Shown here: positions 2,045 to 14,736 of the stretch, piece after piece
How the letters are laid out: every line of letters begins with the position of its first letter
Position numbering within the stretch: the stretch's first letter is position 1
Origin: Candidatus Aenigmatarchaeota archaeon
GTDB taxonomy: Archaea; Aenigmatarchaeota; Aenigmatarchaeia; CG10238-14; SCSR01
Length of the DNA: 16,594 bases
Direction: 5' to 3'
Assembly (NCBI GenBank): GCA_030017875.1
Contig: JASEGQ010000011.1
Span: forward strand, 1 to 16,594
Translations under genes and position numbers: made by a program
The notes under the pieces: generated by a model
Databases searched by the model: none
What the model was told of the DNA's origin: nothing
What the model saw: the letters and a program-made list of their open reading frames with translations, nothing else

Positions 2045-2620
2045 TTACGGAGTCAAACGTTTCAGTTCGTAATAGGTTACGTCTCCCTCTTTATCACAAA
2101 CAGCCCACCACATTGTCGCTCTTATATTATGCGCAAGTCTTACAGCTCTTGACATTTCTGGCAAGGAAAAGGCTGATTCTTCTGCAACAGCTTGGACGAT
2201 GGCCATTGTGTGTTCATGCGGAGCTTTAGGACCTCTCTTTAATTTTACACCCCTTTCATAAATTCTAAAGTGGGCACCAAATTTGTAGCCAGTTTTAACC
2301 AGATAGCCTCTATTTCTTAAATCGCGGTAAACAATAAACTGAGGATGGAACTGATTAACATTTTTACTTCCAATTTCCATTAACTTCTGAAAATCAATTT
2401 TTTTCTTCTTCCCATTTTCTTTAACATAAGCTTTCAACTTTCCTTTTTCGATTAAATACGCGGCTTCGATCAATTCTAGTTCTAATCTATCAGGATTTTC
2501 TTCTGGTTGAGGCTTTCCATATCCAGATTCATCGTATAGAGAAACAGCCTCAGGGCTCCAGATTATCACCCTATTCTCTAGCAGTTCACCTTCCCAAACT
2601 TTTTCTGCCACATCTATCAA
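2045..2620 (-). CDS. endA: tRNA-splicing endonuclease subunit (EndA family)
   Basis: 191 aa, TTG start, TAA stop. The C-terminal catalytic domain aligns without gaps to M. jannaschii EndA as I recall it: YRDLRNRGYLVKTGYKFGAHFRIYERG (Tyr present), PHEHTMAIV (His present), RLAHNIRATMWWAVCDKEGDVTYY (Ala where the catalytic Lys is expected). Confidence 0.9.
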   Translation of the reverse strand: MIDVAEKVWEGELLENRVIIWSPEAVSLYDESGYGKPQPEENPDRLELELIEAAYLIEKGKLKAYVKENGKKKKIDFQKLMEIGSKNVNQFHPQFIVYRDLRNRGYLVKTGYKFGAHFRIYERGVKLKRGPKAPHEHTMAIVQAVAEESAFSLPEMSRAVRLAHNIRATMWWAVCDKEGDVTYYELKRLTP

Positions 2621-10996: not shown

Positions 10997-11058
10997 ATTT
11001 TTAAGTTTTATTGCAAAATATTTATTAAGCCCTGGTAGCTCAGCTGGTAGAGCAACTG

Positions 11059-11071
11059 TCGAACGGTTGAG
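11059..11071 (+). other. tRNA-Thr intron 1 (13 nt, between positions 30 and 31)
   Basis: Intron sequence is UCGAACGGUUGAG. The central helix pairs exon C25 A26 A27 C28 with intron GUUG (11066..11069) at 4 of 4. The 5' bulge is UG|U and the 3' bulge is AG|A. The outer helix pairs G22 A23 G24 with C32 U33 U34. The intron interior is only a small loop. Confidence 0.7.
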
Positions 11072-11078
11072 ACTTGTA

Positions 11079-11109
11079 ACTGATCATCTGAAGAAGATTA
11101 TGGCAATTG
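11079..11109 (+). other. tRNA-Thr intron 2 (31 nt, canonical 37/38 position)
   Basis: Exon U33 U34 G35 pairs with intron CAA (11104..11106), and C32 faces U, so the central helix is 3 of 4. The 5' bulge is UA|A and the 3' bulge is UG|A. The inner helix is short and wobble-rich. This is a relaxed BHB stacked on the anticodon stem. Confidence 0.65.
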
Positions 11110-11387
11110 ATCAGTAGGTCGCGAGTTCGAGTCTCGCCCAGGGCTTAGTATTATCAGAATTAACAACATGTTTTATTCTGTTATGTAGTACCGGTAAGAG
11201 TAGGCCTGGCTGAATTGCTGAAATGTATTGTGGATGTCAACTTATGCGTCCTAACAACGCATAAAATTTGTTCACAATAAGCTTGCGAAAATGTCTACGC
11301 TGTTATATTGTGAGGTTAAAACCTAGGGAAAATGTCATAAGTTCCATTAAACGTAAGCTTTAAACAGATAAACTACATTCTTATGGG

Positions 11388-14557: not shown

Positions 14558-14588
14558 TATAACGTGGGACGTTAAGCACGAAGTTGTA
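14558..14588 (+). other. tRNA-Trp 5' intervening sequence (31 nt; exact register ambiguous within the GTTGTA direct repeat)
   Basis: This stretch must be removed to join the acceptor stem plus U8 A9 to the D stem AGAU. It is flanked by the direct repeat GTTGTA (14552..14557 and 14583..14588). It contains the hairpin UAACG-UGGGA-CGUUA. In no allowed register could I fold a convincing BHB by hand. Confidence 0.45.
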
Positions 14589-14618
14589 AGATAGCTTGGT
14601 TAGTCTATCAGGCTCCAG

Positions 14619-14655
14619 AGATATTTTGGAGCATTGATACCAGATGAAAGAAGAA
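14619..14655 (+). other. tRNA-Trp anticodon-loop intervening sequence (37 nt, 37/38)
   Basis: In the canonical register the central helix is CUCC/GAAG at 3 of 4 (one C-A mismatch), with 5' bulge AG|A and 3' bulge AA|A. A competing perfect pairing exists between CUCCA (14613..14617) and intron UGGAG (14627..14631). Confidence 0.55.
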
Positions 14656-14736
14656 ACCTGAAAACGAGGGTTCAAATCCCTCCAACCCCATCCAGGCTTT
14701 TATTCATTGCAATGTTGATAGGATGTATCGGATAGT

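Follow-up and report, generated by a model that had tools for sequence, protein, structure and literature searches.

The window, that is, the whole stretch of 16,594 nucleotides analyzed here, belongs to an archaeal genome of 601,625 bases in 53 contigs (37% G+C, 86.85% complete). On its forward strand, the Rfam RF00005 model matched a tRNA at 11029-11145 with 52.5 bits and a 53-nt insertion. In the Rfam alignment, all arms are in place, and 53 nt are present between ACUG and CAGU where 9 are expected. This gene is very probably best explained as one for tRNA-Thr(UGU) interrupted by two endonuclease-type introns, with the following parts:

11000..11005 (+): TTTAAG, box A/TATA-like element, read from the sequence; starts 29 nt upstream of tRNA nt 1
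11029..11058 (+): exon 1, nt 1-30 (acceptor 5′ strand, D arm, nt 26, anticodon-stem nt 27-30 ACUG), from Rfam RF00005 and from ARAGORN on the spliced sequence
11059..11071 (+): intron 1, 13 nt, position 30/31, from its bulge-helix-bulge (BHB) motif and from homologous introns in 12 same-family genomes
11072..11078 (+): exon 2, nt 31-37 (A31, then CUUGUA), anticodon UGU at 11075-11077
11079..11109 (+): intron 2, 31 nt, canonical position 37/38, from a relaxed BHB
11110..11145 (+): exon 3, nt 38-73 (A38, UCAGU, variable loop AGGUC, T arm, acceptor 3′ strand, discriminator U73)

The gene does not encode CCA and is followed on its 3′ side by a run of T. Archaeal box A elements are located ∼26 nt upstream of tRNA starts (PMC3491384), and from this usual spacing we infer that TTTAAG is the promoter element. 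The neighboring genes are mostly typical of archaea (topoisomerase VI A and B, NMD3, a Taw1-like radical-SAM enzyme, geranylgeranyl reductase, cis-prenyltransferase, and PCMT).

Splice model and identity of the tRNA

Every removal of 44 nt from the 53-nt insert that left nt 31-39 pairable, with Y32, U33, and R37, was enumerated. When a 5-bp stem, a 7-nt loop, U33, and R37 were required, the full enumeration contained no one-intron solution. Fourteen two-intron models obeyed the loop rules, and a BHB was present at both sites only for 11058|11072 combined with 11078|11110; a second two-intron model, 11058|11072 combined with 11074|11106, passed when the BHB criteria were relaxed. After shuffling of the 53-nt insert, none of 3,000 sequences was as good as the proposed model, and 67 of 3,000 gave any acceptable model at all. 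Scanning the precursor with loose criteria returned dozens of chance BHB motifs; a lone BHB was, thus, not regarded as evidence, and the joint constraint with the cloverleaf was used instead. Because G11058 equals G11071, and A11079 equals A11110, a shift of either junction by one base leaves the product unchanged; among these registers, only the junctions given above fit a BHB. A BHB-flanked excision of 44 nt as a single intron (11061|11106) was considered and discarded, as it yields a U31.U39 opposition and the loop CGAUUGA.

The spliced 73-mer was identified by ARAGORN as tRNA-Thr(tgt) of 73 nt. It folds into a regular cloverleaf (7-bp acceptor, 4-bp D, 5-bp anticodon, and 5-bp T stems) with the anticodon stem ACUGA/UCAGU and the 7-nt anticodon loop CUUGUAA, which contains U33, the anticodon UGU, and a purine at position 37. 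The body and the acceptor end (G1-C72, C2-G71, U73) are of the Thr type. Stem, loop, and identity elements are, thus, all present in the sequence where the initial annotation had placed them. The Thr isoacceptors of the same genome, Thr(CGU) on contig C9 and Thr(GGU) on contig C12, have backbones that match the spliced product, with the GCCC start, the D arm, AGGUC, and U73 in common. No second UGU isoacceptor was present among the 21 Rfam and 18 ARAGORN matches in this genome; since the assembly is ∼87% complete, another Thr(UGU) gene could be located in unassembled DNA.

With the gene as BLAST query, matches were obtained in 58 of 61 related genomes, mostly to Thr tRNAs. In one relative (G044), the anticodon arm of Thr(UGU) is ACUGA-CUUGUAA-UCAGU, which is identical to the spliced arm of the window; in another (G023), it is UCUGA-CUUGUAA-UCAGA, again with the same loop. 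In pattern scans of genome and metagenome collections, which permitted a gap of zero length, the matches were mostly bacterial Thr(UGU) genes, many of which contain exactly the spliced junction string, GGTAGAGCAACTGACTTGTA. Judged from these matches, this string occurs commonly in natural Thr(UGU) genes.

The intron at position 30/31 and its distribution in the family

A strict hBHBh′ motif consists of two 3-nt bulges on opposite strands, which flank a 4-bp helix and are cut after the second bulge nucleotide, and of flanking helices h and h′, neither shorter than 2 bp. In intron 1, all four pairs of the central helix are formed (11053-11056 with 11066-11069, CAAC/GUUG), the bulges are 3 nt each (11057-11059, UG|U, and 11070-11072, AG|A), and the outer helix comprises 3 bp (11050-11052 with 11073-11075, GAG/CUU). 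The inner helix is the single pair C11060-G11065. The bulge-helix-bulge core is, thus, that of the strict motif, but one flanking helix is too short; because of this single inner base pair, intron 1 represents a relaxed form. This geometry is as originally described for the locus, including the near absence of an inner helix.

When the 118 genomes of the order were searched by pattern, 17 other genomes of this family had a Thr(UGU) gene that carries an insert somewhere from nt 26 to nt 32. Twelve of the 17, from genera g5, g6, g12, g19, and g24, carry an intron of 20-24 nt at the same 30/31 site, so that, the genome of the window included, 13 same-family genomes have it. The BHB geometry is the same in the 12 relatives, and their inner helices are 4-6 bp long. 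When the 30/31 introns were aligned on the hBHBh′ motif, 99.3% of the cells were paired and seven pairs were changed on both sides; none of 500 shuffles reached the observed values, and pairing in slid controls was between 29 and 44%. The central helices (CAAC/GUUG, CAUC/GGUG, CAUC/GAUG, CACC/GGUG, CACU/AGUG, and CACU/GGUG) covary with the tRNA's own nt 27-28. By this comparison, the 13-nt intron of the window is the family intron, with an inner helix of 4-6 bp reduced to one C-G pair. The presence of the intron in 13 same-family genomes with compensatory changes supports the interpretation of the gene as tRNA-Thr(UGU). Together with the splice-model enumeration and the fit to Thr tRNAs, the homologous, covarying 30/31 intron sustains the original proposal of introns at both 30/31 and 37/38.

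The suggestion that 13 nt is near the lower size limit of archaeal introns does not hold, as this genome and its lineage commonly have introns of 10-13 nt. ARAGORN reported introns of 11-13 nt in four other tRNAs of this genome, some canonical introns of Thr(UGU) in relatives are 12-15 nt long, and a 13-nt non-canonical intron in tRNA-Cys of ARMAN-2 is cleaved in vitro (PMC3239211).

Further interruptions were observed in relatives and elsewhere in the genome. By manual parsing, two other genomes appear to have inserts of 13-14 nt a few positions upstream of 30/31. Some relatives carry additional introns in Thr(UGU) at 37/38 and at about 42/43. In genus g5, two genes (G004:C34, locus L276, and G081:C32, locus L275) combine the 30/31 intron with an intron of ∼20 nt near 42/43, again by manual parsing. 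That of G004 has a further 13-nt intron at 37/38, and its 5′ part is non-contiguous, which suggests another intron or a split gene. In the genome of the window itself, tRNA-Gln(UUG) (C17:5741-5864, reverse strand) seemingly contains, when parsed manually, a 17-nt hairpin intron at 31/32, immediately preceding the anticodon loop, and an intron of ∼18 nt after nt 37; ARAGORN merged the two inserts into one intron of 34 nt. Although the genome is ∼87% complete, it returned only the 21 Rfam tRNA-like and 18 ARAGORN matches mentioned above, most of them intron-bearing, and several of the ARAGORN calls are plainly wrong. Given so few matches at this completeness, many tRNA genes must be more disrupted still and have escaped detection.

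That the gene is instead a decaying pseudogene, the insertions being debris and a working Thr(UGU) gene lying in the ∼13% of the genome that is unassembled, is very improbable. The assembly is indeed incomplete and divided into 53 contigs, and thermodynamic predictions for the BHB conformers are unfavorable. However, every stem of the spliced tRNA is perfect, the intron is kept at the same site in same-family genomes with compensatory changes, a conserved module is kept in the canonical intron (see below), and similar interruptions occur in most of the genome's tRNA genes.

Splicing to another anticodon, be it to Ile(UAU) with one 38-nt intron, to the alternative loop CUAUUGA, or to a Phe-like GAA loop, is very improbable: it is favored by the ARAGORN call obtained when introns are allowed (Ile(tat), i(33,38), 38-nt intron) and by the second model passing relaxed BHB criteria, but no one-intron model satisfies the stem and loop rules, the alternative loop would place the anticodon AUU on a Thr-type body, and CUUGUAA is found in all relatives having fewer introns. 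The Ile(tat) model itself was rejected because it has neither a BHB nor support from homologues, and the Phe-like loop because it requires three introns and lacks BHB support. With default settings, ARAGORN found no tRNA in the window. The warning that automated callers could misassign the anticodon was, thus, justified insofar as a miscall does occur; the outcome is Ile(tat) or nothing at all, and not Phe as had been expected.

The canonical intron and its guide-like module

For the tRNA-Thr(UGU) gene with two introns, the splicing motif of intron 2 is again imperfect. Three of the four central pairs are formed (11074-11076 with 11104-11106), position C11073.U11107 (C32.U) being a mismatch; the outer helix comprises 5 bp only once intron 1 is gone, and of the 3 bp of the inner helix, two are G-U. 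Because of the single inner pair in intron 1, and of the central mismatch and the two inner G-U pairs in intron 2, neither intron is a strict hBHBh′ motif.

In the minimum-free-energy fold, a different structure prevails. The first nucleotides of the intron, 11079-11086 (ACUGAUCA), form an 8-bp helix with 11108-11115, which are the final 2 nt of the intron and nt 38-43 of the tRNA, and, thus, cover the 3′ splice site. This helix is a rival of the intron 2 BHB and is far more stable; by nearest-neighbor energies, the BHB conformers lie 11-28 kcal/mol above the minimum-free-energy fold. The intron contains the following elements:

11079..11086 (+): antisense (guide-like) stretch ACUGAUCA, pairs with 11108-11115; a copy of the 5′ anticodon-stem strand
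11088..11091 (+): CUGA, box D′-like; the fifth nucleotide upstream, A11083, pairs with U11111, which is nt 39
11096..11100 (+): GAUUA, imperfect box C′-like, 4 nt after CUGA, possible kink-loop (motif pick 12/18; weak here)

In relatives, the place of the C′-like element is occupied by GAUGA or UGAUGA, or by a full kink-turn with a capped stem. The loop CUGAAGA within intron 2, previously described as a Phe-like decoy, is, thus, part of a module that is conserved in the canonical introns of Thr(UGU) across the class.

The class-wide search covered 371 genomes and returned 41 inserts at the canonical position (or on its 3′ side) that belong to Thr(UGU) genes of 40 further genomes; the pattern did not match the window's own Thr(UGU) gene. 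Most Thr(UGU) introns of at least 28 nt share one layout: the antisense stretch; an NNGA box, often CUGA or UUGA; either a loop of 4-9 nt or a capped stem with a 3-nt bulge; (U)GAUGA; and, at the end, (C)AAG, which pairs with nt 32-35. In 26 distinct introns, 7.27 of the 8 positions of the antisense helix are paired, compared with 5.38 when targets are swapped. The two positions that lie entirely within the intron covary as well (1.88 of 2 paired, compared with 0.61 after swapping). The GA...GA motif was chosen from the stem that it forms, with the antisense pairing left out of account. With this choice, nt 39 lies, across 29 introns and in nearly all lineages, opposite the fifth nucleotide before the box; genus g39 and genome G214 are ambiguous.

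Among the related genomes, the Thr(UGU) introns of 28 (loci L303-L331) were seen to contain an antisense copy of the 5′ stem strand followed by a GA...GA kink-loop, and those of more distant members of the class (L327, L329, and L330) to contain a full kink-turn, in which a tetraloop caps the stem and the bulge is 3 nt long.

A box C/D guide RNA has a terminal kink-turn formed by box C (RUGAUGA) and box D (CUGA), and its target nucleotide lies opposite the fifth nucleotide. In intron 2, the antisense stretch is directly upstream of the D′-like box in the fifth-nucleotide register, with a helix of 7-8 bp. A possible D′/C′ pair (kink-loop) is present in the window as CUGA, a 4-nt spacer, and GAUUA, and in relatives as UUGA, CUGA, or NNGA followed by (U)GAUGA or a full kink-turn. 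A terminal C/D pair is lacking: the antisense stretch is not preceded by a box C, and the second half of the intron is not followed by a box D. L7Ae, Nop5, and fibrillarin are all three encoded in the genome. A second match to the L7Ae family (C49:22070-22336, forward strand, 55.8 bits) contains two in-frame TGA codons, which could point to a broken gene copy, to mini-introns, or to recoding.

A comparable layout was observed in the tRNA-Trp(CCA) gene of the same window (14580-14690). Its canonical intron of 37 nt (14619-14655) contains, in this order, UUGGAGCA, UUGA, UACCA, and GAUGA. The antisense stretch pairs with nt 32-37 of the anticodon loop, and G14629, the fifth nucleotide upstream of UUGA, faces C34 (14615), a nucleotide that the tRNA-Trp intron guide of Haloferax is documented to target (PMC7994747). 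Other candidate combinations of guide, box, and target in tRNAs of the genome proved mostly spurious (in tRNA-Gln, for instance, UUGA is the anticodon itself), and only that of tRNA-Trp held.

The helix that the beginning of intron 2 forms with the 3′ strand of the anticodon stem might well have no guide function, an explanation with close to an even chance of being right. It would then be a leftover of a duplication or a device for folding or quality control, for example, one hiding the 3′ splice site until the body of the tRNA has formed. This is consistent with the intron stretch repeating the 5′ stem strand letter for letter in many lineages, with an intron below the length of a full box C/D RNA and devoid of the terminal C/D pair, and with the imperfect C′-like box (GAUUA) of this genome. 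Duplication of the stem, however, leaves unexplained why covariation extends to the last two nucleotides of the intron, and the next element, in every case a GA...GA kink-loop or kink-turn, is located at a constant distance. The tRNA-Trp intron, moreover, has the same layout and is aimed at a nucleotide already documented as a target of the Trp intron guide (PMC7994747).

Tentatively, and with a chance somewhat short of even, the canonical intron of Thr(UGU) in this class may instead be a stripped-down, self-targeting guide, which would direct 2′-O-methylation of nt 39 before splicing, as the Trp intron would likewise do for C34. With its 7-8-nt antisense stretch and a single D′/C′-like kink-loop or kink-turn, such a guide would pair with the very precursor that contains it, at the 3′ strand of the anticodon stem. 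A report of a guide-like intron in tRNA-Thr(UGU) was not found in the literature. The Nanoarchaeum equitans tRNA-Met intron is C/D-like, and Randau (2012) lists intron guides as known only for tRNA-Trp and possibly for that tRNA-Met (PMC3491384).

In Euryarchaeota, the intron of pre-tRNA-Trp is a box C/D guide for Cm34 and Um39 (Clouet d'Orval 2001; Bortolin 2003; Singh 2004, as cited in PMC7994747). The Thr(UGU) intron resembles it in being canonical, in having an antisense stretch beside CUGA, in the fifth upstream nucleotide facing nt 39 of the same tRNA, and in the mutual exclusion of guide duplex and splicing motif. In contrast to the Trp guide, the Thr intron is only 28-39 nt long, has one guide and one kink-loop or kink-turn without terminal C/D, and is located in tRNA-Thr(UGU).

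Splicing pathway, related systems, and meaning

A single gene for a tRNA-splicing endonuclease was found in the genome, and it is located in the same window:

2045..2620 (-): EndA, 191 aa, Pfam PF01974, 90.2 bits (match 2072-2350)

This enzyme presumably cuts both introns. Its closest solved relative is the Methanocaldococcus jannaschii enzyme (1a79), which is a homotetramer, and compared with it, EndA has a basic insert of six residues, rich in Lys, Arg, and Pro, just before the catalytic His. By its sequence, the only EndA found, thus, looks like the homotetramer type. Homotetrameric EndA is classically strict toward its substrate and thought unable to cut non-canonical introns. A genome full of non-canonical introns is here served by a single, homotetramer-like EndA. 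DPANN lineages in which a homotetramer-type EndA carries an extra loop ("L3 loop") have many disrupted tRNA genes (PMC5829648). A gene for the ligase RtcB is present on contig C33 (566 bits).

In the proposed pathway, EndA, encoded 9 kb from the tRNA gene, would cut at 11058|11059, 11071|11072, 11078|11079, and 11109|11110, and RtcB would join the three exons to the 73-nt tRNA with the arm ACUGA-CUUGUAA-UCAGU, CCA being added later. Because the intron 1 BHB borrows nt 22-28, it can form only while the D stem is open. Both BHBs use nt 32-34 and are, therefore, mutually exclusive, so that splicing is probably stepwise; once intron 1 is out, intron 2 would acquire its full 5-bp outer helix. Since the BHB folds are energetically so far above the minimum, protein-assisted refolding must be assumed. 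The analysis shows the gene itself, a single consistent splice model, covarying homologues of intron 1, and genes for both enzymes, whereas we infer that tRNA-Thr(UGU) is expressed and in fact cleaved, and in which order this happens.

The two-intron Thr(UGU) gene belongs to a known kind, the multi-intron tRNA genes of archaea. Genes with several introns and non-canonical BHB motifs are described for Thermoproteales and other archaea (Sugahara 2007/2008, as cited in PMC4090602 and PMC4033280). The present case resembles those of Thermoproteales in that one to three short introns occur per gene, the BHB can borrow exon nucleotides, the introns are of the kind cut by EndA, and their removal restores the cloverleaf. 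It differs in the host, which here is of DPANN type with a genome of 0.6 Mb; in EndA, which here is homotetramer-like and there a heterotetramer; and in the origin of the 30/31 intron, which here is inherited across the family and not recently transposed. ARMAN-2 (Ca. Micrarchaeum; PMC3239211) is similar in being an ultrasmall DPANN archaeon in which more than half of the tRNA genes are disrupted, with 13-nt non-canonical introns and a relaxed BHB. Its enzyme, however, is a three-unit (epsilon2) protein of ∼390 aa, compared with the single EndA of 191 aa here, and its intron is at 59/60 of tRNA-Cys, compared with 30/31 in the anticodon stem of tRNA-Thr.

With an intron at 30/31 that is conserved across the family, the gene makes a good comparative case, and it is useful for annotation: standard tools, which recover ∼20 tRNA genes from this genome, miss or misname Thr(UGU), so that annotations would wrongly lack the tRNA reading ACA. 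The non-canonical intron in the anticodon stem has been inherited family-wide and has shrunk to 13 nt, despite the fact that the only EndA found is like the strict type. If the canonical intron indeed were a miniature guide, short tRNA introns would be functional and would direct ribose methylation of their own tRNA, and acting as box C/D elements of half size with a single guide would be a regular job of short DPANN tRNA introns. Their retention would then be explained, which would bear on the old question of why tRNA introns persist.
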